From NCBI GenBank assembly GCA_963807605.1, contig CAWECG010000001.1, positions 96,001 to 160,000 of the forward strand: a stretch of 64,000 bases of DNA. Reading direction: 5' to 3'. The notes below the pieces were generated by a model that did not search any database, was not told where the DNA came from, and was given only the letters and a program-made list of their open reading frames with translations. Shown in pieces: positions 34,639 to 57,151 of the stretch. The stretch comes from Candidatus Bathyarchaeota archaeon. Lineage in GTDB: Archaea; Thermoproteota; Bathyarchaeia; 40CM-2-53-6; RBG-13-38-9. The translations under genes were made by a program, and so were the position numbers. Each line of letters starts with the position of its first letter. The first letter of the stretch is position 1.

Positions 34639-35874
34639 TTGAGCTCTCCGCCGGTCCAGCCTGAAATCAACATTGGCACTCTAGGGCATGTTGATAATGG
34701 TAAGAGCACTCTGGTGCAGGCATTGACAGGAGTATGGACCGCGAGGCACTCGGAGGAGCTCAGAAGAGGCATTACGATCAGGATAGGTTATGCAGATGCC
34801 TATTTCTACAAGTGCTCTTCCCACAGGGGAGCAGCGGCGTTCAGCACCAAGAAGGCATGCCCCATCTGCGGGGCAGAGACGAAGTTTCTGAGAGGCGTGA
34901 GTTTCATAGATTGTCCCGGACATCACAGCCTAATGGTGACGATGCTTTCAGGCGCCGCCTTAATGGATGGTGCACTATTTGTTGTCGCAGCGGATGCGAA
35001 GTTTCCCCAAGCTCAGGATCGGGAGCACCTGTTGGCTGCCGAGATGGCCGGAATCAAGAAGTTGATAATTGTTCAGAATAAGATAGACGTGGTTAACCGA
35101 GAACGTGCAATTAAAAATATGCAAGAGATCCAAGAATTCGTCAAGGGTAGGCCTGCAGAGAAGGCTTCCGTAATTCCTGTGTCAGCCCAGCACGGAATTA
35201 ACATCGATTTACTGATAGAGGCAATTAACCACGAGATCCCAACGCCGAAGAGAAACCCCTCAGCCACACCTCAACTATACGTTCTGAGATCGTTCGATAT
35301 CAACAAGCCAGGCACAAGAGCAGAGCAACTACACGGTGGGGTAATAGGCGGATCGATCGTTCAAGGGATCTTTCACCGTGACGACCAAATTGAGATAAGA
35401 CCCGGCTTAAGAATGGAGAGCGGCGGCAAGACTTTCTACCAACCAATATTCACTCAGATAAGAAGTCTTCATGTCAGCCAAGGTGAAGTTGAACAGTCCA
35501 GTGCGGGCGGTTTAGTTGGAGTGGGCACATCCCTCTGTCCCTCCGTGACCAAGGCGGATAGTCTAGTGGGGAGTTTAGTCGGAAAAGAAGGCGGCCTTCC
35601 AGCCGCGCTCGACAAGGTGACACTCGATGTTGAGCTGTTTGAGAGGGCTGTTGGCACAGAGGAGCTTGTGACCGTTGAAAAAATCAGGACGAATGAGCCC
35701 CTTGTTCTCAACGTTGCGACTGCTGTGACGTCGGGGGTTGTTACCTCTGCACGGGAGGACGTGATTGACGTACAGTTAAAGCGTCCAATCTGTGCAGATT
35801 CCAGCTTCAAAGCCGCCCTTAGCAGAAGAATAGGTGATAGCTGGCGGCTGATCGGTTATGGAACTTTCAAGTGA
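34639..35874 (+). CDS. eif2g: Translation initiation factor 2 subunit gamma
   Basis: QPEINIG, GHVDNGKS, RGITIRIGY, DCPGH, QNKID and RSFDINKPG motifs. Confidence 0.97.
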   Translation: MSSPPVQPEINIGTLGHVDNGKSTLVQALTGVWTARHSEELRRGITIRIGYADAYFYKCSSHRGAAAFSTKKACPICGAETKFLRGVSFIDCPGHHSLMVTMLSGAALMDGALFVVAADAKFPQAQDREHLLAAEMAGIKKLIIVQNKIDVVNRERAIKNMQEIQEFVKGRPAEKASVIPVSAQHGINIDLLIEAINHEIPTPKRNPSATPQLYVLRSFDINKPGTRAEQLHGGVIGGSIVQGIFHRDDQIEIRPGLRMESGGKTFYQPIFTQIRSLHVSQGEVEQSSAGGLVGVGTSLCPSVTKADSLVGSLVGKEGGLPAALDKVTLDVELFERAVGTEELVTVEKIRTNEPLVLNVATAVTSGVVTSAREDVIDVQLKRPICADSSFKAALSRRIGDSWRLIGYGTFK

Positions 35875-36419
35875 TTAGCCGATACGCTTTTGTCATCTTT
35901 AATCTCATTGTCAATTTGATATGGTTAAGGATGACACGGTCATAAGAAGAAGTCGTTTCATTAGCCTTTTTCTTTTGTCAGTGTTAGAGTTCGGTGAGGA
36001 ACTTCAAAGATATTTTTGGCATTTATGGTCGATTCATCTACATGCAACTTTCGTTCGAGCATCGTGTCGTGCTAGGAGCATTGGAAAGATAACGGTATTT
36101 CGCTGAGTGTTTTCTTTCTTGTGTCATTTCTTCTTTTTCAGTTTTAGTATTCGCAATTGATCGTCGGTCAGTGGAGGCACTCTGAAAGCGGGTTTCCCAG
36201 TTTCTCCAAGTTGGGATAAAGGCAAATTGGCCTTTTTCTCGTACTCATTAGCGTATCCATATCCTTTGTTGCTCTATGGCACTTGCGTCAATTCCGTGAG
36301 ATGTTTTCTTTAGTCGAAGGAGACCTTCTCTCTTTAGTTCCTCGATTGCCTGAGAAACGTAAGATTTGTATTCCAATGGACAGCTTTTTCCCAGGTTTAG
36401 CGTGCGCTGTGAAGGTCAA

Positions 36420-37778
36420 TCAGCGGAAAGTTTCAGCTTGCGTCTGTCTCAGCTTCAATAGGAAGGATTCTTCGTTCAATTTGACATCGTCGTAGGTGAT
36501 TACCATGTCTCTAGAAATCGTTCTTTTTACTTGGATACCATCGGCGAAGCCAAGAGGCAGCAAATTCTCCTTTGTAGCAGTATCTGCTTCTTCTGCGAGC
36601 CCATAAATCGTATATCCTCCAGAGCCGTCCAGCACATCTCCCGGCTTCAGATTCCTCTTGGCTGCAGTTATAACCTCTGCGACGGGTCTAGTAGGTAGTG
36701 GTGCTCCAGTCGGTTGTTCAAATAATGCTGCTCGGATCAGCGAGATCGACGCTTCGAGACCTGCTAGATGGTGTGGTCTGAATATGAGAGCATTTTTTCC
36801 TCCCATAGAGCAACCGTAGCTCCCTAGGATTTTCATTACTTCTCTATCTTCGCTAGTAATCACAACGAAGACGCCCCACCGTAGATTATCCTCAATTCTT
36901 TGGCCGTCCTGGCTGTCCCATGGGATAACCTCGGTGACACCTTCGCTCTCAAGTATTCCCCCCTCTTTCTTTAAACTTAGTACTTTAGGAATCTCTTTTT
37001 TTGGTACTGAAGAAAAGTGCATTCCTCTAATATCCGGTTTCAAGCCTGTTGCGTTGCAGACCGCGGTCATTTCTACGGCACATTTTGTTGTGTCGATGAA
37101 GCTGTTATACATCTTCAGGTTTGGCCGCAGACGTTTAATTTCCTCCTGCGTCCAACCGAACCTTGGGAGTGCATCATCAGGCGTCAAATGTCTCCATTCC
37201 AATCTGGCGGCAGTCCCTTCACCTGCAGCTACAACTCTAAATCCTGAGGATACAGCCCAATCGTAGAGTTCAACTATTACAGCTGGCTGATCCCCGTAAG
37301 CCATACTGTAAACTACGCCTTCCTCCTTCGCCATCTTAGCTAAGAGCGGCCCAACTACAACTTCGGCTTCAACCGTAGCCATCACCACATGTTTCTTATT
37401 CTTTATAGCGTGGTAGGCGTGTCTAGCTCCTGCTTCCGCACTTCCCGTAGCTTCAAGGATAACATCGACATCGCTCTCCATCACCACTTGGCTATTGCCT
37501 GTGATTACGGGGACCCTCTTCTCGATAAAATGGTTCGCAGCATCGACGTCTTTAACTTCAGCTATCTCGTTAGGCTTATGACCAGCGGATACATACCCTT
37601 GAATCGCTCTCTCTTTCTCTATATCCGCTACCATAGAGATGTCTATACCTGGGATCTTCGCTACTTGTCTCATTACTGAAACGCCGAAAAAGCCCGCGCC
37701 AATAATCCCAGCCTTAATCGGCTTGTTGGTCTCCTCAAGTTTCCTAAGCTTGAGCCATGTAACAGTGCTCATCTTCAT
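36420..37778 (-). CDS. NAD(P)-dependent oxidoreductase with C-terminal SAF domain (homoserine dehydrogenase-like, COG4091)
   Basis: IGAGFFG, EATG, GDQP, EMTAVCNATGL, RPHHL and LDGSGGY motifs. Confidence 0.85.
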   Translation of the reverse strand: MKMSTVTWLKLRKLEETNKPIKAGIIGAGFFGVSVMRQVAKIPGIDISMVADIEKERAIQGYVSAGHKPNEIAEVKDVDAANHFIEKRVPVITGNSQVVMESDVDVILEATGSAEAGARHAYHAIKNKKHVVMATVEAEVVVGPLLAKMAKEEGVVYSMAYGDQPAVIVELYDWAVSSGFRVVAAGEGTAARLEWRHLTPDDALPRFGWTQEEIKRLRPNLKMYNSFIDTTKCAVEMTAVCNATGLKPDIRGMHFSSVPKKEIPKVLSLKKEGGILESEGVTEVIPWDSQDGQRIEDNLRWGVFVVITSEDREVMKILGSYGCSMGGKNALIFRPHHLAGLEASISLIRAALFEQPTGAPLPTRPVAEVITAAKRNLKPGDVLDGSGGYTIYGLAEEADTATKENLLPLGFADGIQVKRTISRDMVITYDDVKLNEESFLLKLRQTQAETFR

Positions 37779-38599
37779 ATCGCCATCAAATAATTAGAGT
37801 CCAAGTAATCAAAGGTAAAACAATCAATAGAAGAATAAAGCTTCTCCCAATTGGGTGGAGGGCTACTGAACGAAAATTTGTTAATTTGCTCTGTGAGAAG
37901 CTTCCAGAAAATGTGCGCATTATGACTGTAGCTAGGAATCAGGATGAGGCAGCAAAATCAAATCAAGAATTGCAGAAAGCATTCAACCATCCAAACTACG
38001 AGTCGACCCTCAGAAGTATATGGTAGAAATGAAGGGTCGATTCTGACCAATGAGTCTATTGCTTCTTGGGCTTTGTGAGGTGTACTTTGAGTTTGGAATC
38101 TCTAAAAGAGACATCGATGTGTGGGGAAAGCCCCCTGATGTTGACTATTACCAAAACATCGAAGTCAAGAACAGAAGAGATCCACTCAAAGAGGCTGAAC
38201 TAGAGAACCAACAACATCAATTTACTACTAACTCCAGATGAAGCATACAAGAAGTAGAGAATACTTGAGTAAGAAGAACAAAGGTAATGCTACAAGCCTG
38301 ATAATACTAGGCATAATGATATTTGGCATAGCTTTGATGGCTAATGCTGTGGGTAACATTGTTTTTCCAAGTACTGCTAGCATGGCTGAAGCCTATAGTG
38401 GATAGTATTGAAGCGTTGATGCTTGATCTTCTATACTATAATTCACCTTTAGCCTATGGTTAGAATAGCTAGAAGAACTTATCATCATATGATTAATCCT
38501 TCAATAATGCCTATGGATGATGATTAGCGTGTCTTCAGCATCTAGGATATAGTACTTCAGTATCTCAAAGTGCCTCTATGGTATATATTTAATGATACA

Positions 38600-38960
38600 T
38601 GCAAGCATACTGAAGCCTCAAAAGTGTAGCTGGCAAGCCTTAGCATTAAGCTTGCCAAAGCTTACCGAAGCCTTCTGAAGCTTACTAGGCTTATGTGGTG
38701 TATTAGTATCCAGTTCTGGTGAATGCTAGGGAAGCATACCGATAAGCTTCGACAAGCTTGATCAAGCCTAAGCCTTTCGAAGCATTGAAGCATCTAAGTG
38801 TATCAGAATGTGTTAAAGTGTCTTTAAAGTGCTACACAATGCTCTCATAGTGCTTCTAAAGTGCTCTTTGATCATGCGAGATCGTGGGATTCTACATCTT
38901 TCGAGGGTGGAGATGTGCTAGTACCATGTAATTTTACTAGTACCATGTAATTGCTCAGAA
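38600..38960. repeat. Helically phased short repeats and a 16-bp tandem direct repeat
   Basis: AAGCYT at 38648/38658/38668/38678; AAGC at 38744/38754/38764; TAAAGTG-like at ~11-bp period 38814-38857; CTAGTACCATGTAATT at 38918 and 38937. Confidence 0.7.
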
Positions 38961-39075
38961 CCATATACGGTCTAGACAGTACTCTATTGTACAAACTACT
39001 ATTATACTTGAGTAAGTATTGTACTCGGTACTTTAGTAAAGCAGTAGTCTTTAGGCAGCAAGACCCTTTTCAAAG

Positions 39076-39157
39076 GTGCTCACCTAGGGACACAAAATAG
39101 TCTGCTCTAACGGTTCAAATCCGAATGCTCTCACCAGCTATGGCACACACACACAAT
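39076..39157 (+). repeat. Island repeat copies 1-2 (GGTTCAAAT-N5-TGCTCTCACCAGCTATGGCACACAC family)
   Basis: GTGCTCACCTAGGGACAC at 39076; full copy at 39112-39157. Confidence 0.8.
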
Positions 39158-39186
39158 AATATCCGATAGCGCACGCTAAGGCTTGA

Positions 39187-39342
39187 CTATACTTTATGAT
39201 GAATCTTCTCAAGCTTCTCCATAATCTCGCCTAGCTCCTTGATGATCTTGACTAGATTCGTATTTAGCATCTCAATTTCCGAATGGATACTATCGAGACA
39301 CCTCATCAACTCATTTGAGTCCACAGATCCAAATTCCGGCAG
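39187..39342 (-). CDS. Small coiled-coil hypothetical protein (51 aa, CTG start)
   Basis: Strong RBS GGAGGTGAGG before CTG; LPEFGSVDSNELMRCLDSIHSEIEMLNTNLVKIIKELGEIMEKLEKIHHKV. Confidence 0.45.
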   Translation of the reverse strand: MPEFGSVDSNELMRCLDSIHSEIEMLNTNLVKIIKELGEIMEKLEKIHHKV

Positions 39343-39432
39343 GTCTCCTCACCTCCATATTCTTTATTCTGTATTAGCATGAGTTTGGCCCTATACTGCT
39401 CCTCAGCAGCCTTGATGATCTTCTCCCCGTTG

Positions 39433-39696
39433 CTACCAGTGAAAGAGATCTTTGAAGGCAACGATAATGTTCAGAGCGGTCAGTGCTATCAGAATGAGTG
39501 TGAGTCTGTTCAACCGGTCTGTCAGTTCATTCAGTCTCTCACTTGAATCATAGATCAGGTAGGTGGACAATAATAAGTAGGGGTCGTTACCTGCCAGTTC
39601 TTCGTATGCACTCAGGTTCTCTGCCAGCTTTCTAATACGTGGCCGAAGGACACTGGCAAGCTTCCTGGTGAGCTCTTCATGCTCTTTATACATCAC
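39433..39696 (-). CDS. Small hypothetical protein with C-terminal TM helix
   Basis: RBS AGGTG; SSERLNELTDRLNRLTLILIALTALNII coiled-coil plus TM pattern. Confidence 0.55.
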   Translation of the reverse strand: MMYKEHEELTRKLASVLRPRIRKLAENLSAYEELAGNDPYLLLSTYLIYDSSERLNELTDRLNRLTLILIALTALNIIVAFKDLFHW

Positions 39697-39820
39697 CTAG
39701 ACTCCTCTATCAGTGCGAGTCTGGCTCCCCAGTACTTCTCTGCAGCCTTGGCAAGTTTCTTCATGGCCGGTAGGTTCGTCAGCGCGAGCGCTTAAGGAAA
39801 TCCTCTAGCGAGTGTGGTGC

Positions 39821-40645
39821 TCATTTTGATTGGTTCCCGATGACTGTAAGTTTGCCACTTTTGCCAACACTCACCTGCAGTTCTCCTTTGAACGCTTTTA
39901 CTCTTCCGTTCTCAATGTGAACAGTATCACCGATCGAGACCAAACCTATTTGGGCGTTCCAAAATGGAAACTTGATGGACCCAGTGCCATCAGAGATTGT
40001 TGAGTTTGATACACCGAGAGGGTTACCCCCGTACCTCGAGAAGACCGTCCTCGCGATTGGTTTCTCAACGACCCGGGCTTTCAGATTGACCCATTTGACT
40101 CCCGAATTTACATCTTTGACTTTCATGTCTACAGGTATCGCCTTTTCAATTTTGTTGAGTGTCGTGTATTCGTTCCATGGAGGGCTTTCAAGGTCAATTT
40201 CCGGCAGATGCTTCAACGTTGCCCCGGTAAGGCGTAGTTGAGTGATTACCTTTTGATCTTGTGTTACGAGAAAGACACCGTCATCCTTTGTCTTTTCGCG
40301 GCATTGGATCGATATATCCTTGTACGACGATCTCTCATGCGTCCACGCATCGAAGAAGCATTCAAAAAATTTGTGCGGGTCAAGCCCGTATTTCTTCGAA
40401 ACATAGAACAAGTACAAGATGTGTGTCATATCAGGCTTAAATTGCCGTTGGCCACGGGGTCTACCCCGTCCATAGTGCAACATCTCTCTTCGTAGAACAT
40501 GTAAGCCTGTCAACAAGATCAGGTTATTGTGAGTTGCCTTGCTCTTTAACATTTGATCATCAGCTAGCGCGTGGTTACTGAGGAATCTGGATGCGACGGA
40601 TACTTTGCTAAGCCCTTCACTCTGAAGATCTTTGGTAGAGGTCAA
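39821..40645 (-). CDS. OB-fold single-stranded DNA-binding (SSB/RPA-like) protein with unknown N-terminal domain
   Basis: C-terminal MKVKDV..VNLKARVVE..ISDGTGSIKFPFWNAQ..GDTVHIENG..FKGELQVSVGK. Confidence 0.75.
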   Translation of the reverse strand: MTSTKDLQSEGLSKVSVASRFLSNHALADDQMLKSKATHNNLILLTGLHVLRREMLHYGRGRPRGQRQFKPDMTHILYLFYVSKKYGLDPHKFFECFFDAWTHERSSYKDISIQCREKTKDDGVFLVTQDQKVITQLRLTGATLKHLPEIDLESPPWNEYTTLNKIEKAIPVDMKVKDVNSGVKWVNLKARVVEKPIARTVFSRYGGNPLGVSNSTISDGTGSIKFPFWNAQIGLVSIGDTVHIENGRVKAFKGELQVSVGKSGKLTVIGNQSK

Positions 40646-40701
40646 GAGGTATCTTAAGAGATACTGAGCCTCTTCTCCGTCTCCTCAACGTTGTTAAGAA
40701 G

Positions 40702-41343
40702 GTGCTGTATATGGTGACTGACGAATTCTATCGATGGAGTTGTGAAATCTCGGCAAAGGAGAAGGCAGTCGTAACTATACAGAATGTTGTCGCCACGGCA
40801 AATCTAAAACAACGCTTAGACCTAGATATCATTGCGCGATTATTTCCTGGAACTGAGTATCGACCAGAACAATTTCCAGGGCTTGTTTTCAGATTGAAGA
40901 AACCGAAGACTGCGACACTCCTTTTCAGCTCTGGAAAGATGGTTTGCACTGGCTCTAAATCGGAACGACAAGCGAGGAAGGTAGTGTCAACTATTCTGAA
41001 TGAACTCAAAAGGAATAAAATTGTTATTGTTGGCAAACCTAGCATTCAGGTACAGAACATTGTATCTTCAGGCGGACTAGGCGGCTCAATAGATCTAGAG
41101 AAGACGACTTATTCACTGACGAAGACGATGTATGAACCTGAGCAATTTCCCGGCTTGATTTACCGGATGGATGAACCGAAAGTGGTTATGCTCCTCTTCG
41201 CAAGCGGTAACTTCGTCTGCACCGGGGCGAAGAAGGAAGAAGAAGTTCACCGCGCTGTAACCACACTTCAAGAGACGCTTGAGAAGAAGGAGCTCATTGA
41301 CTATAAGCAGACAGATAAAATAGTCTACTCAAATACCACATAA
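40702..41343 (+). CDS. tbp: TATA-box-binding protein
   Basis: Two repeats NVVA/NIVS...YxPEQFPGL...LLFxSGxxVCTG. Confidence 0.95.
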   Translation: MLYMVTDEFYRWSCEISAKEKAVVTIQNVVATANLKQRLDLDIIARLFPGTEYRPEQFPGLVFRLKKPKTATLLFSSGKMVCTGSKSERQARKVVSTILNELKRNKIVIVGKPSIQVQNIVSSGGLGGSIDLEKTTYSLTKTMYEPEQFPGLIYRMDEPKVVMLLFASGNFVCTGAKKEEEVHRAVTTLQETLEKKELIDYKQTDKIVYSNTT

Positions 41344-41360
41344 CTTCTCGAGCGTACCCG

Positions 41361-41645
41361 TCAAAGGGATTTTGAAAGAGTTATCTCGATGGTTGAGACC
41401 GACCTCGTGCCGCCTTCCTCCCTGGGCATCTCTTCTGTCCCAAGACTCACGCGTTCAACCTTGAGGTTTTTCATGAACCTACGTCTGGTTATTTCCGCGA
41501 CGTCAACTGCGGTTGATATGGCCTGACCTCTGGCTTTGAGGTTTACTTCTTTTGTCTCTCCTCTACCAATGATGGCCATCACGGACAACACATAGTCCAT
41601 GGGCGGGTTTCGTCCTATGAATACAGTGTTAGGTTCCTTAGACAA
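41361..41645 (-). CDS. albA: DNA/RNA-binding protein Alba
   Basis: VFIGRNPPMDYV, LKARGQAISTAVDVAE and VSTIEITL motifs. Confidence 0.92.
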   Translation of the reverse strand: MSKEPNTVFIGRNPPMDYVLSVMAIIGRGETKEVNLKARGQAISTAVDVAEITRRRFMKNLKVERVSLGTEEMPREEGGTRSVSTIEITLSKSL

Positions 41646-41844
41646 GATATCACCAAGCATTTCATGCGTGTTAACGTGCGAACACACATATAAGCACTTA
41701 ACCACTTTCAGACGGTCCCGTAATGTTCCTTAATTGTTAGCGCGCTTGTCTCAGATTTCATCCTAGAAATGTCCGCGTGGATGTCCACGCCGAAACCAGT
41801 ATCCACGTGACCGCACAAAACAGCCAGTTATCTATATCCCCCCT

Positions 41845-41975
41845 TAGCTGGTGAGCACACACACAATCAATGCCCAACGGTTCAATTTACGATGCTCTCA
41901 CCAAGGGACACACACACAAAACAAAGCCTAGCGGTTCAAATTAGGGTGCTCTCACCAGCTATGGCACACACAATT
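41845..41975. repeat. Island repeat copies 3-5
   Basis: Inverted copy 41845-41867; direct copies 41879-41921 and 41933-41975. Confidence 0.8.
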
Positions 41976-43041
41976 CATTCCCCTCATGTTGGGAGAAGAA
42001 TCTCGCAAACCCTCTCTTTATCTTACGGATGACTCGCTACGCTCGCCAAAATATGAGTTCTATGACGATACTATGCACCTATGGAGAAGGCCAATATTTC
42101 CAGTAGATTCTTGGAGTCTGCCTTAGAAGTGGATAAGAAAGCTCCAAGATTCAGTCAAAAAAAGGCAAGACTGTAGAAAGGCTTTTTAAAATATGCATTG
42201 CACACCACTTTCATTGGGTTCAATAGTATCAGTGACATCCCTTGTCCAAGAATATGACGATTCCTGATTGGGTAAGAGTTCTAAGAGTCATGGTGGGTTG
42301 GATCGCAATCGTGGCCTCAGTAGTCGTCCTCGCTTGGCCAGGCCTTGCAATCTTCACCCTTCTTTTCCTCCTTTCATTCGCCCTGCTCTTTTTGGGTGTC
42401 GCTAGAATTGCTCATAGTTTCGCAGCTAAACTGTGGTCGAAAGGGCACCGCGCACTTCACGCAGTTGCTGGTGTTCTGGCGCTCATCCTAGGAGTACTAG
42501 TCCTTGCATTTCCTGGGCTTGGCATTGCTACTCTAGTCTTCTTACTCGCTTTTGCGCTACTAGCTTATGGTATTGTAAGCTTGGTGATAGGTGGATCTGC
42601 CGTTGCAGGTCTCTTATCAAAATTCGTGAGGGCGCTTCTCATCATAGTTGGTTCGCTCAGCATCATTTTCTCGCTCTTAGTCATTGTGTTCCCGGCGGTC
42701 GGACTCGTATCACTAGTGATAATGCTTTCGGTTTCATTTCTCCTGAACGGTATTGAGAGCATAATTTCAGGAATTAAGTGAACGAGTCAGGAACCCGCAG
42801 AAACTGCGATTGAACAATGTGAAGTATCTTGCTTGGCAACAGAGTAGAAATCCCACCGATCTTGATTGTCGCCAAACACCTCTCATTTTTTTTGCGCGGG
42901 CTGTAGACCAGTCATCACGAAGAAACGGTTTCCAGTCTATCATGTTTAATCCTCCGAGCGTAACGAGCCATTCTTCAGAATAAAGAAGGGGTTTGGGGAA
43001 TTCTTCCCCAACATGAGGGGGAGGAATAATTGTGTGTGTGC
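41964..43041. mobile_element. Putative non-autonomous cassette with ~60-bp imperfect inverted ends, carrying the DUF308 gene
   Basis: 41964-42022 is the approximate reverse complement of 42978-43041; flanked on both sides by TCACC(A/C)GCTATG. Confidence 0.5.
42242..42781 (+). CDS. HdeD/DUF308 family membrane protein
   Basis: Repeated G-x-x-x-I..LxxPG TM hairpins. Confidence 0.8.
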   Translation: MSKNMTIPDWVRVLRVMVGWIAIVASVVVLAWPGLAIFTLLFLLSFALLFLGVARIAHSFAAKLWSKGHRALHAVAGVLALILGVLVLAFPGLGIATLVFLLAFALLAYGIVSLVIGGSAVAGLLSKFVRALLIIVGSLSIIFSLLVIVFPAVGLVSLVIMLSVSFLLNGIESIISGIK

Positions 43042-43065
43042 TCACCCGCTATGGCACACACAATT
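43028..43065 (+). repeat. Island repeat copy 6 (palindromic form)
   Basis: AATTGTGTGTGTGC-TCACCCGCTATG-GCACACACAATT. Confidence 0.8.
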
Positions 43066-43224
43066 CAACGCTGCTCGCTCCGCTCGCAGAATTCCTAGGA
43101 GGGGGATGTATTTTGACCATAGAATAAGGTTGAAGAGGCGCTCGAGAAGCAATCCTGATGGAAAATCACGTTCGTGAGATTGAATATGAAAAAAGGTGGT
43201 TCCTGCTCTATGAAGAGCGGGAGT

Positions 43225-43431
43225 TTACTCTTTCTTTCCGAACATGCTGCCGAGTTTGCTGGCAACTCCTCCGGTGGGGGTTCCGCCAGCTAGCACAGCG
43301 TCAATCTGACTCGCAACTGGAGCTGGAAGTTTACTCTTGAGCACGCCTGCGACGGCATCAATAGCACTCTTAGCTTGCGCCTCTGACAAACCGGTTTTCT
43401 GAGCGACGGCTGAAACAATAGCGCTTGACAT
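43225..43431 (-). CDS. Small hypothetical protein (DUF2267-like)
   Basis: VAQKTGLSEAQAKSAIDAV..LKSKLPAPVASQID pattern; RBS GGAGGTG. Confidence 0.65.
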   Translation of the reverse strand: MSSAIVSAVAQKTGLSEAQAKSAIDAVAGVLKSKLPAPVASQIDAVLAGGTPTGGVASKLGSMFGKKE

Positions 43432-43541
43432 ACATTCACCTCCAGTGTCTATGTTTGCATGAAGAAGAGAATCGCTATTTAAAGATGTGCGCACAACTCG
43501 CGCGCGTAAGTGTTAAAAACAGTGTGACCTATCTTTAAACT

Positions 43542-44123
43542 ATGTCATCTATTGTTGGAAATCTGATGCAACAAGTAGCGACAGGAGATAACCTGTCCGC
43601 CATTACCAAGTCGGTCGGTGGAGATAATCAGAAAGGGGTTCAATCTGCCCTGAGCATGGCTTTGCCCCTGCTCATGGGTTCCATGGCGAACAGCGCATCA
43701 ACGCCAGGCGGAGCTGGCATGCTCACAAATATGCTGGGACAAATGGGGGGCAGCAATCCCGCGGACAACCTCGGGAGTTATCTAAGCAACCCTCAAGCAG
43801 CGGGTGGGTCAGGTATGCTGAACACGCTGCTCGGGAGCAAGATGGGTACCATCCAGAACGCAATCTCGCAGAAGACCGGACTCCCCCCTGCAGTGGTCGG
43901 CAAGGTACTCGTCATAGCGATGCCAATGGTCATGGGCTACGTCGGCAAGATGTTCACAGGACAGAAGGTGGACCAGAATAGCCTCTCCAATCTTCTTGGG
44001 CAGCAGTCGAAGATGGCCATGCAGTCTTCACCCGAAGCCGCCAATATGGCAAAACAGCTCCTCGCCACGAAAGAGGAGAGCGGGGGCATCATGGGCATGC
44101 TGAAGAAGTTGCTCGGAAGTTAA
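43542..44123 (+). CDS. DUF937 family protein
   Basis: ALPLLMGSM, GSGMLNTLLG, ISQKTGL and LVIAMPMVMG motifs. Confidence 0.75.
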   Translation: MSSIVGNLMQQVATGDNLSAITKSVGGDNQKGVQSALSMALPLLMGSMANSASTPGGAGMLTNMLGQMGGSNPADNLGSYLSNPQAAGGSGMLNTLLGSKMGTIQNAISQKTGLPPAVVGKVLVIAMPMVMGYVGKMFTGQKVDQNSLSNLLGQQSKMAMQSSPEAANMAKQLLATKEESGGIMGMLKKLLGS

Positions 44124-44422
44124 CCCAGTTCAGGAAATACCCCCATCCTTTTTTCTTTGTTTCTTTCCGATTTCGCCGCTGTAGTGTGATGTTGCTCTCA
44201 TTGAATTCTTATTTTTTATAAGAATACGCCGTGACGTTTTCACATCACGAGTTCTCATAATATTACTCTTCGTATAATCGAAAAATCTCACGTTCCCCTG
44301 AAATCTAACTCCTCAACTCCCTCCTACACGCCGCTAACTTAATCAGGGCGGCGGGGGCGGCGCATCATTAGTACCACACAAAAAAACTTAAGTGAATTAT
44401 CAAGAGAATAACGAAAAGAGAG

Positions 44423-44674
44423 GTGATTGTGTTGGCTAAAGTGAAGAAGCGTTCGGAGGAGTTTGACAAGGCTAAGCTAAAAACTTCTTTGAAGAAGGCT
44501 GGAGCCAAAGAGGAACATGCAACAAAAGTTGCCGATAAGATTGCAGACAAAGTAAAAGATGGAACCACAACTGTAAAGATTTGGGAGTGGACTATAACAG
44601 AACTCAAACCATTAGATCCGAAGGCTGCAGAAGCATACCGAACTTACAAGAAACCGAAGCGGTCAACTAGCTAG
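44423..44674 (+). CDS. Stand-alone ATP-cone domain protein
   Basis: VKKRSEEFDKAKLKTSLKKAG...TTVKIWEW...AAEAY. Confidence 0.7.
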   Translation: MIVLAKVKKRSEEFDKAKLKTSLKKAGAKEEHATKVADKIADKVKDGTTTVKIWEWTITELKPLDPKAAEAYRTYKKPKRSTS

Positions 44675-44813
44675 ATACTGCCAAGGTGGATCAGCATAAG
44701 TAATTAAGTCTCCCGGTGGAGTGGGGCTATATGATTTTGCGCTGGCTCCGCTCCCTTCTCCCTAATGCGCTTAAGTACCTCTGTGCGCGTTGGTAGGGCA
44801 TCTTCCCCCTATT

Positions 44814-44906
44814 GGTTCAAAATGCGTTGCTCGCACCACTAGACCCACCACCACCAAAAATCACGGGTTCAAATTGCGATGCTCTCACCAGCTATAGCAC
44901 ACACAC
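44814..44906 (+). repeat. Island repeat copies 7-8
   Basis: GGTTCAAAATGCGTTGCTCGCACCA at 44814; GGTTCAAATTGCGATGCTCTCACCAGCTATAGCACACAC at 44866. Confidence 0.8.
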
Positions 44907-45066
44907 CGAGGCTCGCAGGGGATTTGATTGAACTCGCAGGACCACCGAACCAGCTTGTTCCAAAAGACCTCCAACGACAGACCCCACCCGAAAACCAACA
45001 ACAACCAACAAGAAGCTTTAATACGATTGTCCGAGCAACACCCTTAGTACCGGGTGCGTTTTTCTA

Positions 45067-45489
45067 TTGACCGTTCTGAAGGCTTCCGGTAAAAATTTGA
45101 GATTGTCAACTGTTTTCCTATTCCTCACCCTACTCACTTCACTGTTCTTTTTGGAGAGTGGGGTTGTGAATGTCGCTGCCTCCCCAACAGATTGGACCAT
45201 GTTCCATCAAAACCTCACTCATACTGGATTAACACCGGATGTTGTAACACCACCACTTAACGTGGCCTGGAACTACACAACAGGCTGGGTTGTCTCTTCT
45301 TCTCCTGCTGTTTCCGGGGGTTTCGTTTACGTAGGCTCAGGCTCAGGGGTTGATAAAGTGTATGGGTTTGCGAGCGCAACGCCGATTCCAGAGTATCCCA
45401 TATACATCTTTCCACTCGTGGCCTCGCTCACAGTCGCCATGCTTGCGCTAAGGCGTACTCGCTTCAAATCCCACGAACCGATGCAGTAA
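45067..45489 (+). CDS. Secreted PQQ-type beta-propeller fragment with PEF-CTERM-like sorting signal
   Basis: Signal peptide; DWTMFHQNLTHTG; a single SSPAV..VYVGS blade; IPEYP + TM helix + RRTRFK. Confidence 0.65.
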   Translation: MTVLKASGKNLRLSTVFLFLTLLTSLFFLESGVVNVAASPTDWTMFHQNLTHTGLTPDVVTPPLNVAWNYTTGWVVSSSPAVSGGFVYVGSGSGVDKVYGFASATPIPEYPIYIFPLVASLTVAMLALRRTRFKSHEPMQ

Positions 45490-45877
45490 AATCGCGAAAG
45501 GCAACGCCTCCTATCTGATGAAGAGAATAAACTTTTGACGTAAAGTCTTCCAGCGCTAGGACGCGCGCGCTTGCCCAGATAAGTAAGCAGGAAAGGCTCA
45601 TCGACTCCTTTCTCTTTGAGATGCTTGACCAAGCCGTATCCGTCACGGTTGAAGTTCACAAATCTCTCTTTATCCATCAAACCCATCCAAAGGACTTTTC
45701 TCAAAGAAGTATTACTGTCCTGAACATCAACCAAGAGACTAGTTTTGACGGATTAGAAGCTGTTCGGCTATTTGGATCGGCTGCGTCAGAACGCCCAGAT
45801 CTTAGATGAAGCCGTAGTGAATGCTCAGAAAATGGTGAGGCTTGAGGTTGGTCCATCTTTCTTGCTGTCTCGAACAG

Positions 45878-46840
45878 TCAATCTTCAAGCTGTGGCCGTA
45901 GCAGTGATCCGAGTTCGATAACCTCCGCATTTGGGTTTAGTGTTCGATCCAACACTACTATTCGGTTGTGGTTGTAGCGACCATTCGCGAGTCTCTGAAG
46001 AATAATTGACTCAGCCTTGCCACGACCGATGTAGGTGCCTGCAGAGTAATGCAGACTAAATCCGACAAGGACTATGAGAGCATAATGGTAAGAAATAGGT
46101 GCCTCTGCCCAGAGAACTTTGTAGAAGATTCCTAGCAGAGTGACCAGTATGTTGAGACCGATAATCGATCCGAATACAGCGGTTAGAAGAGTTGAGTGGA
46201 ATGGTCCTGAATTGATGCCGATGATCTTGAAGCGCCTGAAATATGGAAGGGCAATCGAAGGGACCAGGCCCGAGATCATGGTGACCACGATCAACCCCGG
46301 TGTCAGCGTGAGTGAAAATAGCACACCGGTCCCACGGTTAGGAATAGCAAAGAAGTTCAATGTATGCAGTAAAAACCGTAGCATACCAGGCTTTGTACTT
46401 AAGGTCCTTGCCAGGTCAACACTGTAGATGTCCCATCCTAGGGCAATCGACGTGAAGAACAATATTAATGGCAGGTAGACTATCTGAGATTTCTGGATGA
46501 GGGCCCTCATCTTTCCGGGTTGCAAGAGTTTTTCCTCCTTAGGTCTGATCACCTGCTTCGTCTTAGTGAGCCTCCCAAGCAATCCAACTATCCCTAACGA
46601 GCATTTGCCTCCGAGGAGTATGATTGACGCATAACCCAGCCCTATGACCAGAAGCCCTACTGTTGACGTAAAGAGTGCGACTGCAAATGGATCAAGACCA
46701 ACATGTGTGAGCTGGGGGATTGAGAACGTTGAAACCGCAGCGACAGAATACGCAACGAATCCTAGGATCAGTGGTGCAGCCGCATCGATGACCGATTCAC
46801 GTTCGGTAAATCTTCCCTTGTTCTCAGCTTGTTCAACCAT
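45878..46840 (-). CDS. Hypothetical multi-pass membrane protein
   Basis: 320-aa ORF with about six hydrophobic segments; no family recognised. Confidence 0.6.
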   Translation of the reverse strand: MVEQAENKGRFTERESVIDAAAPLILGFVAYSVAAVSTFSIPQLTHVGLDPFAVALFTSTVGLLVIGLGYASIILLGGKCSLGIVGLLGRLTKTKQVIRPKEEKLLQPGKMRALIQKSQIVYLPLILFFTSIALGWDIYSVDLARTLSTKPGMLRFLLHTLNFFAIPNRGTGVLFSLTLTPGLIVVTMISGLVPSIALPYFRRFKIIGINSGPFHSTLLTAVFGSIIGLNILVTLLGIFYKVLWAEAPISYHYALIVLVGFSLHYSAGTYIGRGKAESIILQRLANGRYNHNRIVVLDRTLNPNAEVIELGSLLRPQLED

Positions 46841-47335
46841 TCACGGAGTCATCTCTCTTAATCCATCTGGACGCCCAGTCGATAGCATTCTTCAGGACGC
46901 CTGGAATAGAATAATTGTATTCAGGTGTTGCGATTATTTATATATGCCAGTAAAATGACGCTATGAAAAACGCTTTCTGAACTTGGGTCAGAATAGATGT
47001 TTCTGCTGGCCAGACCCGTCCGCACCATGCTCCCTTGAGAGCGATCATTGACTGGGTTACTAGCACGCGCCTTTAACCGTGACCAAACTCTTCGAGGTAT
47101 TCTTAGGCATAATCTCAAGGAGATAATCATCGATCAAATTCCGAATCTCAATCGGCTTCATCTCACAAACGCGAGACCAAGCCAACTGCTTCTCTATGAG
47201 TCACCTCTCAAAAAGACCCCAGACACTTTTATATGATGGACTTCGACTGTAACGCCGCAACCAAACATCAGGCGAATCCGTACATAGAAATACAGTCTCC
47301 AAAGTATCTGAAAATGACAAATGTGTCAAGATTAA

Positions 47336-47755
47336 GTGGTTATGTTGCCCTACCGGGTGGTCCTAGACTCAAATTTCCTTATTCTACCTCTCACGCTCAG
47401 GCTGGACATCTTCTCAGAGATTGAGAGGCTTCTATCTGGACGAGTAGAGTTTCTCGTCGTCAGCTCTGTCAGAAAGGAACTTGAGAAACTCTCGTCAAAA
47501 AATAGTGAAATTGGCAGAAGGGCAGCATTCGCCTTAAAGCTTCTGGATAGGTGCATCTATGTCAACCTGGATCTGGAACAACGAACGACGGTTGATGAGA
47601 CACTCGTTGAATTTGCACGGCAGAATAAGGTTATAGTAGCAACTTCAGATATGCCCCTCAGAAAGAAACTAAGAGATATAAACGTGCCAGTAATCTATGT
47701 AAGAGACTATTCCCGGCTCGAACTTGAAGGATTTCCCATCAAGAATGGAGATTAG
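47336..47755 (+). CDS. PIN-domain protein (Fcf1/Utp24-like)
   Basis: VVLDSNFL, VRKELEKL, VDE and VATSD motifs; conserved position before rpoE1. Confidence 0.88.
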   Translation: MVMLPYRVVLDSNFLILPLTLRLDIFSEIERLLSGRVEFLVVSSVRKELEKLSSKNSEIGRRAAFALKLLDRCIYVNLDLEQRTTVDETLVEFARQNKVIVATSDMPLRKKLRDINVPVIYVRDYSRLELEGFPIKNGD

Positions 47756-55986: not shown

Positions 55987-56072
55987 TCCGTTTCTTGCTC
56001 ACAATTTGTACGATTCTTCTTTAAATTCTGAATGCGTAGCTGAGGATAAGCTTAAAAGATTTTCTTTTGCGT

Positions 56073-57151
56073 TGCTGTGTTGCGCGACTAGGTTTCAGTG
56101 ATGTTTTTCGCTTTTGTTGGCTGTCTTCAGGTTTCGTCTAGCCGTGTGTTGCTGTGGTTGTTTCTATCAGCATGTTGTATAGTGAGGCTTTGATCATCAT
56201 CTCCTGTGCCATGTTTTGCATCGTTTTGGCTGAGACGTATTCTCCGAAGGTTCGCTTCAGCGATGAGAAGGCTGATTCAGCCATCCATCTATACCCGTAG
56301 CCATGATTGTGTTTCCAGGCTTCAGGGTCTTTGAGGTATTCTTGGGCTACGAGCTTTCTGGGCATGCATCCTCCGGCCCTGCTGGATGTGTTCTTGCGCA
56401 CCTTGATGGCTGGCTCAATCCCTTTTGCGTTGAGATAGCGGAAGTTGCTTTTCATATCGTATGCTCCGTCGCCAATTGCCTTGGCGACCTTACCTTTCTT
56501 GGAGGCTTCATCAACAAGCGGCTGGAGCATCCCTCCGTCACCTGTCTTCTCATCCGTCACCTTCAAGGCGAGTATCTTCTTCCGCTTTACATCAACGGCG
56601 ATATGGATCTTGAGGTATCCGCGTCTCACCTTCCATTTATGGCGTATCCATTCGCCGCGGTTAGCCACCTTGATGCCTGATGCGTCCACCGCCAGGACTA
56701 TGTCGTCGCCATAATCTTTCTCATCCAGCTTCACATCTAACCTGTTCACGCGTCTATCTATGGTTGAATAGTCAGGCACATGGATCCTTGAGTCGAATCT
56801 TCTCAGGGCTTTGAGGAATCCTTCTGTCTGCCTGTAGGGTAGGTGGAATAGCAGGTGCATGTAGCCTAGAAGCCTGATGAAGATCTCAGGGTAGACGTAT
56901 TGTCCACCTTCCTTCCCAGTATTCATCTTTTCAAGCTCAATGTTCCACCTGTCAAGGATGCGTGGGTCAAGCAGGATCTCCCCACGCTTCACGAGACCCT
57001 CATTGATGCGTCTCCAATCTCTAGCAGCCAATCACAATCGTGGAATAGTTCTCTCACAGGCAATATAGATCATCCAACCACTTCCACGTCAATAAACCGA
57101 AAACTCAAACCTACATCCATAAACAAAAATGTCTAGTCATGCAACACAGCA
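56073..57151 (-). mobile_element. IS5-family insertion sequence
   Basis: Terminal IRs TGCTGTGTTGC(GC/AT)GACTAG; 8-bp TSD TTTTGCGT at 56065-56072 and 57152-57159. Confidence 0.92.
56138..57031 (-). CDS. IS5-family DDE transposase
   Basis: LVKRGEI, LPYRQTEG, PDYSTI, AVDASG, KIHIAVD, GDGAYD and RWMAESAFS motifs. Confidence 0.93.
   Translation of the reverse strand: MAARDWRRINEGLVKRGEILLDPRILDRWNIELEKMNTGKEGGQYVYPEIFIRLLGYMHLLFHLPYRQTEGFLKALRRFDSRIHVPDYSTIDRRVNRLDVKLDEKDYGDDIVLAVDASGIKVANRGEWIRHKWKVRRGYLKIHIAVDVKRKKILALKVTDEKTGDGGMLQPLVDEASKKGKVAKAIGDGAYDMKSNFRYLNAKGIEPAIKVRKNTSSRAGGCMPRKLVAQEYLKDPEAWKHNHGYGYRWMAESAFSSLKRTFGEYVSAKTMQNMAQEMMIKASLYNMLIETTTATHG

Follow-up and report, generated by a model that had tools for sequence, protein, structure and literature searches.

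Repeat sites in an accessory island of a Bathyarchaeia genome as probable junctions of casposase-type transposition

Repeat sites and cargo of the accessory island

The window analysed here is a stretch of 64,000 nucleotides (C1:96001-160000, on contig CAWECG010000001.1) from the genome of a Candidatus Bathyarchaeota archaeon, whose 2.65-Mb assembly (GCA_963807605.1) consists of five contigs and is denoted G000. It contains an accessory island in which short repeats punctuate blocks of cargo genes (Table 1). Direct reading of the region finds in place all eight of the repeats that an initial annotation of the sequence had listed. Analysis of these sites suggests that they are, with high probability, junctions left by casposase-type (Cas1-family) transposition and represent landing sites, 14-base duplications and the end tips of inserted DNA.

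The modules of a site are, in order, an 18-nt arm (GGTTCAAAT-N5-TGCT), a 14-nt core (CTCACCAGCTATGG, with the variants CTCACCAAGGGA.. and CGCACCACTAGAC) and a microsatellite tip, which is (CA)n and in one case (CCA)n. The core had been described as a shared 12-mer, TCACCAGCTA(T/A)G. In this strict form it is present at five of the eight sites and deviates at 39079 (CTCACCTAGGGA), 41897 (CTCACCAAGGGA) and 44832 (CGCACCACTAGAC), and its true length is 14 bp. The arms had been read as mix-and-match half-sites around a crossover core; instead, the core is a target-site duplication and one left arm is the leader of the target. The other supposed arms (CACACA/TGTGTG) are terminal tips of adjacent inserted elements, AATTGTGTGTGTGC being the mirror-image tip of the adjacent block. 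The arm-plus-core pattern GGTTCAAWT-N4-6-TGCTCNCACCA occurs four times in the window (0.00 expected from shuffled sequence) and GCACACACA occurs six times (0.36 expected), every copy of the latter lying inside 39143-44905. The bare 11-mer core is weak alone, with seven window matches at one mismatch against 2.1 expected and three of the seven outside the region. The resemblance of the arm to the T-loop and 3' end of a tRNA lacking a cloverleaf, already pointed out in the initial annotation, is borne out: ARAGORN predicts no tRNA in the window, and Rfam gives no match at the gathering score and no tRNA or other family even at E ≤ 10.

Table 1. Features of the accessory island, in window coordinates.
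Feature	Position	Strand	Description
Whole accessory island, 11.46 kb	35876..47333	.	Between aIF2-gamma stop and PIN_9 start
Degenerate core CTCACCTAGGGA	39079..39090	+	Direct reading; preceded by ..GGTG; resembles frequent genome variant CTCACCAAGGGA
Landing-pad unit U1	39091..39129	+	Short CA tip remnant, spacer ..AATAGTCTGCTCTAAC, pseudo-tRNA arm 39112-39129
14-bp target copy CTCACCAGCTATGG	39130..39143	+	
Segment A	39144..41841	.	Left (CA)6 tip, right casposon-type terminal repeat; small-ORF (open reading frame), Ssb-like OB, TBP and Alba cargo
Ssb-like OB gene (Pfam)	39821-40645	-	Segment A
TBP gene (Pfam)	40702-41343		Segment A
Alba gene (Pfam)	41361-41705	-	Segment A
Casposon-type terminal repeat (Y-end)	41793..41841	-	Starts GGGGATATAGATAACTGGCTG.. 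from 41841; core directly adjoining
Inverted 14-bp target copy	41842..41855	-	CTCACCAGCTAAGG on minus strand
Landing-pad unit U2	41856..41896	+	(CA)5 tip, spacer, arm 41879-41896
Core variant CTCACCAAGGGA	41897..41908	+	
Landing-pad unit U3	41909..41950	+	(CA)5 tip, spacer, arm 41933-41950
Left target-site duplication of DUF308 unit, CTCACCAGCTATGG	41951..41964	+	
Complete Cas1-less DUF308 unit, 1,076 bp	41965..43040	+	CA/TG tips, ~95-bp terminal inverted repeats
Right target-site duplication CTCACCCGCTATGG	43041..43054	+	13/14; common to segment D left end; tandem junction
Segment D	43055..44813	+	Left end is CA tip and GCTCGCTCCGCTCGC box
DUF2267-like ORF	43225-43494	-	Segment D cargo
DUF937 gene	43542-44123		Segment D cargo
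ATP-cone gene	44423-44674		Segment D cargo
Arm variant	44814-44831	+	
CGCA-type core CGCACCACTAGAC	44832-44844	+	
Landing-pad unit U4	44845..44883	+	(CCA)4 tip, spacer, arm 44866-44883
14-bp target copy CTCACCAGCTATAG	44884..44897	+	
Segment E left end	44898..44985	+	CA tip and ..GAGGCTCGCAGG..

A complete Cas1-less unit and its neighbours

The blocks between the sites had been taken for separate, unrelated cargo. Only the DUF308 block is a clean unit; the others are partial or rearranged. The DUF308 unit carries a single cargo gene (42242-42781; Pfam), for whose product no exact-protein match in public assemblies is on record with either start codon. Its terminal inverted repeats (TIRs) align without gaps over 73 nt (41973-42045 with 42955-43027) at 71% identity, and the bordering 14-mers (41951-64 and 43041-54) agree at 13/14 positions. 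On its right side the junction at 43031-43062 is a tandem joint, in which the right tip of the DUF308 unit is followed by the shared duplication and this in turn by segment D's left tip. The TIRs contain a small hairpin and a box, GCTCGCTACGCTCG, and the same TIR family is found in the comparison genomes G001, G008, G009 and G013. The hairpin (TTGGGAGA-AGAA-TCTCCCAA) and the GGCTCGCTACGCTCGC box (window 41983-42048 and 42955-43027) are kept in at least four genera, and both may be protein-binding sites.

The four short units U1-U4 (39-42 nt) lie between cores, each with a tip, a spacer and an arm, and give a unit period of ~55 bp. This tip-spacer-arm arrangement is found throughout the genome as well as in G002 and G090; it is conserved between genera and stands before or after Cas1 elements. 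U1-U4 are probably end pieces of earlier elements with an internal landing pad, which either a nested insertion separated from the rest or a deletion from the internal to the flanking 14-mer left in place; they are comparable to the solo TIRs of Methanosarcina mazei (PMC4779613). Another locus of G000 (C4:85300-85340, minus strand) shows an arm, then two cores 7 nt apart (CCACACA) and then a canonical TIR end, a series that looks like the footprint of an almost fully deleted insertion.

One further boundary element, a casposon-type TIR at the right end of segment A, was missed in the initial annotation. This Y-end, at the inverted core (41841/41842), reads GGGGATATAGATAACTGG.. on the minus strand, and its start is identical at 14/16 bases to that of the 31-nt TIR of MetMaz-C1, which begins GGGATATAGGTAACTC (PMC10359463). 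The genome holds 14 copies of the Y-end, ten of which adjoin a recognisable core in either orientation; two good and two weak matches do not. Its occurrence in both orientations is what would be expected of a terminus able to serve on either side of an insertion. The left end of segment E shares 92% identity with an end of a different element, at C1:400028-400117.

Features by which casposons are recognised are found in the window: a duplication of fixed length, exactly 14 bp between a leader or tip and a tip; terminal inverted repeats, in the form of the DUF308 TIRs, of CA/TG tips elsewhere and of the Y-end; and a tRNA 3'-end leader, as judged by the geometry and conservation of 41 sites.

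The same site anatomy around Cas1 genes

The sole full-length Cas1 gene of G000 (C3:803495-804703, 402 amino acids) has the M. mazei casposase 6OPM as its best solved relative (E 5.7e-72, full length), the best CRISPR Cas1 scoring 4e-25. Neither Cas2 nor effector genes were found in the G000 genome. The Cas1 gene lies in an element of 8,980 bp (C3:796434-805413) with (CGA)n/(TCG)n tips. This element is flanked by a perfect 14/14 direct repeat, CTCACCAGCTAAAG, and the arm GGTTCAAATCTGGATGCT is located immediately outside one copy of it; on the other side, a 4-kb (CA)n-tipped unit stands in tandem and has one duplication in common with the element. It is from this anatomy that the core is recognised as the target-site duplication, the arm as a leader that lies outside the element, and the runs of CA/TG as element termini.

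Two tests were applied to Cas1 loci of other genomes. The strict one looks for a CNCA-starting 14-mer with a microsatellite that is repeated beyond Cas1 behind the mirror microsatellite; a leader, a 14/14 duplication and microsatellite tips are present around Cas1 in G000, G096, G090, G070 and G077. The general one asks for inverted 8-nt termini and a 14-bp direct repeat of whatever sequence, with up to one mismatch, on the two sides of Cas1, and 10 of 29 further Cas1 loci from public genomes pass it with duplications of at least 13/14. Four of these ten are the same G096, G090, G070 and G077 elements, and the passes include two Bathyarchaeia elements located at real tRNA 3' ends in the same register. 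Also among the ten are Cas1 elements of a Methanococcoides strain and an Aenigmatarchaeote, which begin with GGGATATAG, and one of a Methanomassiliicoccaceae metagenome-assembled genome (MAG), which begins with GGGGTAGTAG. Altogether, Cas1 elements with matching site anatomy comprise the G000 element and those of nine other genomes. In G096, the right duplication of the Cas1 element is followed by a Y-type end.

Cargo of the Cas1 elements in G000, G090 and G096 includes SIR2_2 (SIR2-like), ATPase_2 and other ATPases, DUF5677, a TIR-domain protein and DUF4365, and looks defence-related. The open reading frames flanking Cas1 show no similarity between G000 and G096, and the accessory genes of these elements are therefore not conserved.

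Target geometry

In M. mazei, the 14-bp duplication opens with CGCA, the four bases with which tRNA-Leu ends; integration requires about 30 bp of tRNA sequence upstream and does not occur when upstream bases 12-17 are mutated (PMC6977970). The casposase of Aciduliprofundum boonei requires TCAAATC at -15 to -9 together with C+1 and C+2 of the duplicated segment (PMC6614799). At the sites studied here, the spacing of a tRNA 3' end is exact in the arm (T-loop, 5 nt, 7 nt, discriminator A, CCA), TCAAAT occupies -15 to -10, and the duplication, with C(T/G)CA at its start, begins three bases ahead of the discriminator. The core at 44832 starts with CGCA, as do the M. mazei duplications (PMC6977970). 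The five bases between the T-loop and TGCT vary freely, while TGCT|CTCA is conserved. Part of the conservation in the profile of 41 sites is forced by the search pattern, so it is the unforced positions and the register that carry the argument on the target. In geometry and conservation, the conserved leader positions match the experimentally mapped determinants of CHARACTERISED casposases.

The arm is not the end of a functional tRNA gene of this organism. It shows no T-stem pairing, no real tRNA of the genome ends ..TGCTCTCACCA, and none of the 22 Rfam tRNA or 31 ARAGORN (-i) predictions ends alike. ARAGORN finds 9 tRNAs in G000 without intron search and 31 with introns, Rfam giving 22 matches, and most tRNA genes of this archaeon seem to be intron-bearing. 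The real tRNAs have an encoded CCA and GC-rich acceptor stems, in contrast to the arm.

Distribution in the genome and in the order

The initial annotation had confined the copies to the island, which holds within the window but not in the genome. Genome-wide there are 22 arm-plus-core copies by a looser pattern (21 exact), ~85 cores and ~90 copies of GCACACACA; core-plus-tip junctions under a strict definition number 73, and distinct junction cores including right-hand junctions number 116. A scatter through ordinary intergenic DNA would have spoken for REP-like (repetitive extragenic palindromic) or regulatory sequences. The sites are indeed genome-wide, but they are clustered and lie at element boundaries: the 116 junction cores fill 40 of 134 20-kb bins, as compared with 78 under random placement (minimum 66). 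Most cores have one of three things on their left: an arm, a conserved end (..CAGCCAGTTATCTATATCCCC) or the TG-type tip of a different block; at some junctions there is none of these. Among 105 genomes of the order scanned for the arm, the exact arm is present in eight, whereas a control pattern read backwards gave 0 matches. In G090 there are just two exact copies, at distances of 1.8 and 3.5 kb from the two casposase genes that most resemble that of G000.

The island in related genomes

In all 25 relatives that have both genes on one contig, aIF2-gamma and RpoE' are separated by 450-630 bp with a PIN-domain gene alone between them; five further relatives, in which the two lie on separate contigs or one match is lacking, are outside the 25. 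In G000 the same two genes are 11.9 kb apart, and base-level alignment with four relatives delimits the insertion to the island as given in Table 1. An imperfect direct repeat of 9 bp (AAGTGATTA / AAGTGGTTA; window 35868-35880 and 47325-47340) brackets the island; it derives from the overlap of the aIF2-gamma stop and the PIN start in relatives and is possibly a duplication from a different insertion mechanism.

The module of Ssb-like OB, TBP and Alba genes in segment A has paralogues of 91-92% identity at C1:422156-423925 and C2:45927-47272, with differing flanks. The module (window 39777-41547) is thus present three times in different accessory contexts, Alba being part of two of the copies, and these copies are extra basal transcription and chromatin genes on mobile DNA.

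The initial annotation had stated that no recombinase is encoded in the window. This is correct for Cas1 and tyrosine recombinases, but an insertion sequence (IS) unrelated to the sites is present at 56072-57151. It is 1.08 kb long with a DDE_Tnp_1 transposase (56138-57031, minus strand) and ~18-bp inverted ends that are unrelated to the casposon-type sites, has eight genome copies of 99.6-100% identity and is probably active.

A casposase model for the cassette pile

These observations lead to the following model. A casposase would take a pseudo-tRNA 3' end (GGTTCAAAT-N5-TGCT) as its leader and make staggered joins across the adjoining 14 bp (C(T/G)CACC+8). The ends of the inserted DNA would be microsatellite tips, (CA)n, (CCA)n or (CGA)n, or a classical GGGATATAG.. 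casposon TIR, and repair would double the 14 bp such that a core brackets each inserted unit. The leader-proximal copy would stay a good target, and many units would bring their own pad of tip, spacer, leader and target, so that new units could land beside or inside older ones and give a pile of cargo blocks parted by cores. On this model, Cas1-less units would be mobilised in trans by a casposase and the pads would travel with the elements, with events in the order just outlined. In line with the model, artificial mini-casposons devoid of Cas1 are mobile in vivo and insert into the left duplication, where they form a tandem (PMC10359463), and tandem casposons with one common duplication, as well as solo TIRs, are documented in Methanosarcina (PMC4779613). 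Repeated site-specific integration building a cassette pile, as the initial annotation had proposed, stands, and of its three analogies the casposon-like one is right while the integron-like and dif-module-like ones are not. The outcome is an integron-like cassette pile formed through casposon chemistry and not a new recombination system.

Several observations weigh against this interpretation. No Cas1 gene is present in the window (C1:96001-160000), and the link to the enzyme is shared site anatomy rather than adjacency; the window units are at best non-autonomous members of the casposons. The full-length Cas1 of G000 has Pro (CCT) at the position of the catalytic His, which is kept by nine of nine aligned relatives and is present in the M. 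mazei enzyme, whose active site consists of E162, H232 and E247; both acidic active-site residues are retained. The Pro codon is one base from CAT, and the change is either a real inactivation or an assembly or consensus error. A second Cas1 copy of G000 keeps the His and is without the first ~183 residues, and a third is a 113-amino-acid fragment, so that the genome's own copies look defective. PolB was not found by Pfam among the open reading frames scanned in the Cas1 elements of G000, G096 and G090, and membership in the strict, 'self-synthesizing' casposons therefore fails; the two PolB genes of the G000 genome are located elsewhere. The (CA)n tips end in 3'-G, while the characterised M. 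mazei end has 3'-C. The outer edges of the island carry no core, tip or other casposon signature, which implies that the casposon-type pile sits inside an island that arrived, or was bounded, in another way.

The remaining difficulties concern the units themselves. Segment A lies between cores in inverted orientation and is therefore not one simple insertion. For segments A, D and E, partners of the left ends were sought, and the sole TIR pair in the island is that of the DUF308 unit; no right tip was found for segment D and no right end for segment E before the island edge. With inverted cores and absent right ends, most of the 'cassettes' in the window cannot be reconstructed as simple insertions, and the rules of nested and tandem insertion yield no unique history for it. 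For none of the units does the genome contain a second copy over the full length; only ends or halves are shared, and there is no direct sign of an increase in copy number. Flanking cores are only modestly more alike than random pairs: at least five of six variable positions match in 14 pairs as compared with 8.4 expected (P ~0.01), the mean identity giving P ~0.1 by permutation, and that the excess is no more than modest is attributable to the sequence specificity of the target. Because of the defective-looking Cas1 copies and the lack of a full-length second copy of any unit, we regard the array as a record of past insertions; the pile in the window is partly decayed, and is probably a fossil record and not an active platform.

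Alternative explanations

The sites could belong to a family resembling MITEs (miniature transposable elements with inverted repeats) that is moved by a non-Cas1 transposase, with the Cas1 genes as mere cargo. The majority of units are without Cas1, the simple-repeat tips are unlike the characterised casposon end, the Cas1 of G000 looks inactive and active DDE IS elements are present in the genome. Nevertheless, such a transposase would need to mimic the target geometry of a casposase: 14 bp, unusually long for a DDE duplication, is also the length of the casposase offset, the positions conserved in the target fall on the determinants mapped for two casposases, and a canonical casposon TIR uses the identical 14-bp target. 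Furthermore, no other transposase was seen in the open reading frames scanned from three Cas1 elements, and the ends of the window IS are unrelated, which together make this explanation very unlikely. We consider it very unlikely that the sites are attachment sites of tRNA-targeting tyrosine integrases, with integrase-less islands accreting in tandem (as in cis-mobilizable elements, CIMEs) and the arm being a duplicated tRNA 3' end. The exact tRNA 3'-end spacing of the arm would suit such integrases, and two of the five Phage_integrase matches in the genome (C2:56541 and C1:288226) have a core within ~500 bp. Tyrosine-integrase sites, however, are longer direct repeats and have no TIRs, whereas the complete unit here has ~95-bp inverted ends and its duplicated segment is fixed at 14 bp and bounded by tips. 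The window has no integrase (no Phage_integrase match), no real tRNA gene anchors the array according to ARAGORN and Rfam, and in the Cas1 elements resolved in ten genomes it is Cas1 genes, not integrases, that such sites bracket. A tRNA-anchored integrase island was likewise rejected, with no tRNA in the window by either program and arms without T-stem pairing.

Host sequences spread by selection, such as REP-like elements, promoter or terminator modules, small RNA genes or transcription-factor sites, would also be intergenic, genome-wide and partly palindromic (TGTGTG-core-CACACA), and the spacer and arm are conserved across genera. Yet the sites cluster strongly in accessory DNA and bracket TIR-bearing units. 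They are missing in 97 of the 105 genomes of the order as well as in the conserved intergenic regions of the window, and they have no Rfam match, so that a host function of this kind is highly improbable. A dispersed repeat of REP or MITE type was given up when Cas1 genes proved to be flanked by leaders and perfect 14-bp duplications. The runs of core, U unit and core might also call to mind a CRISPR-like memory array of 14-bp repeats and acquired spacers, given the ~55-bp period beside leader-like sequence and the Cas1-type chemistry. This we regard as scarcely credible and exclude, since the units in between show homology among themselves and are not unique captured DNA; besides, Cas2 and effector genes were not found and the repeats are 14 bp long as against 24-50 bp in CRISPR arrays. 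Two further candidates were rejected. Integrons have an IntI tyrosine recombinase with an adjacent attI, and their attC sites are imperfect hairpins; the window has no Phage_integrase match, and its sites consist of a leader, a 14-bp direct duplication and tips, with one complete unit bearing TIRs. In modules of the pdif type, 28-bp XerC/XerD sites alternate in orientation, each with two 11-bp arms around a 6-8-bp spacer. What looks like a palindrome at 43031-43062 consists instead of a tip, a 14-bp duplication and a tip, and its arm lengths vary with the length of the microsatellite.

Comparison with known systems

Casposase-type transposition, the preferred reading, sets the sites closest to the family-2 casposons of M. 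mazei. The two share Cas1 similarity, a 14-bp duplication that starts C-N-C-A three bases before the tRNA discriminator, upstream tRNA-like sequence (~30 bp of which is needed in M. mazei), tandems with a shared duplication, solo end remnants, the agreement of the Y-end with the MetMaz-C1 TIR start (14/16) and, in engineered form, Cas1-less mini-casposons that move in trans (PMC10359463). Unlike in M. mazei, PolB was not found in the Cas1 elements examined here, the ends are mostly microsatellite tips ((CA)n, (CCA)n, (CGA)n or (CCG)n) in place of a 31-nt TIR, and the target is a pseudo-tRNA end on mobile DNA rather than a host tRNA gene or a fixed intergenic site. Moreover, there are more than 100 junctions and many natural Cas1-less cargo units per genome, in contrast to one to three elements there. 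AciBoo-C1 of A. boonei, inserted at tRNA-Pro, also has a leader and a 14-15-bp duplicated segment at the tRNA 3' end (PMC5137440, PMC6614799), with an essential T-loop motif upstream and essential bases at the border of leader and duplication, a comparison made by geometry alone; it differs in that the target here is not a functional tRNA.

Integron arrays resemble the pile in their unrelated promoter-less or single-gene cassettes, recurring short site and preferred entry point, but here there are inverted ends, target duplications and Cas1-type transposition and no IntI-type recombinase, attI or attC hairpins. [quoted passage not shown]

In the literature that we read, casposons are rare, carry PolB, occur in one to few copies and are of interest chiefly as the presumed ancestor of the CRISPR adaptation machinery. 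In the library searched, we found no relevant literature on casposons in Bathyarchaeota or on natural non-autonomous casposons. Tandems with shared duplications, solo TIRs and engineered mini-casposons mobilised in trans have already been published for Methanosarcina, while PolB-less Cas1 elements, microsatellite termini, a mobile-borne tRNA-mimic pad and dozens of natural Cas1-less units in piles are undescribed in the literature that we found.

Implications

For annotators of archaeal MAGs, the present findings mean that 'integron-like' arrays of repeat, gene and repeat may be casposase products. The sites and enzymes are open to direct in vitro testing. A more far-reaching and tentative possibility, which we hold to be rather doubtful, is that Bathyarchaeia harbour a PolB-less casposase platform for gene capture, in which a portable pad of leader and 14-bp target, mimicking a tRNA end, is duplicated with each insertion and any microsatellite-tipped DNA can be stacked as cassettes. 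If so, the tip-leader-target units would be a head-to-tail record of past insertions, and the platform would be a natural intermediate between casposon transposition and the leader-proximal growth of CRISPR arrays, as well as a Cas1-based analogue of integrons. Two traits of the elements, a leader-like pad of their own and ends reduced to microsatellites, are relevant to how a leader-repeat array could arise from a transposon target. In this archaeon, casposon chemistry appears to have shaped a sizeable part of the accessory genome, with cargo that includes TBP, Alba and an SSB-like protein.

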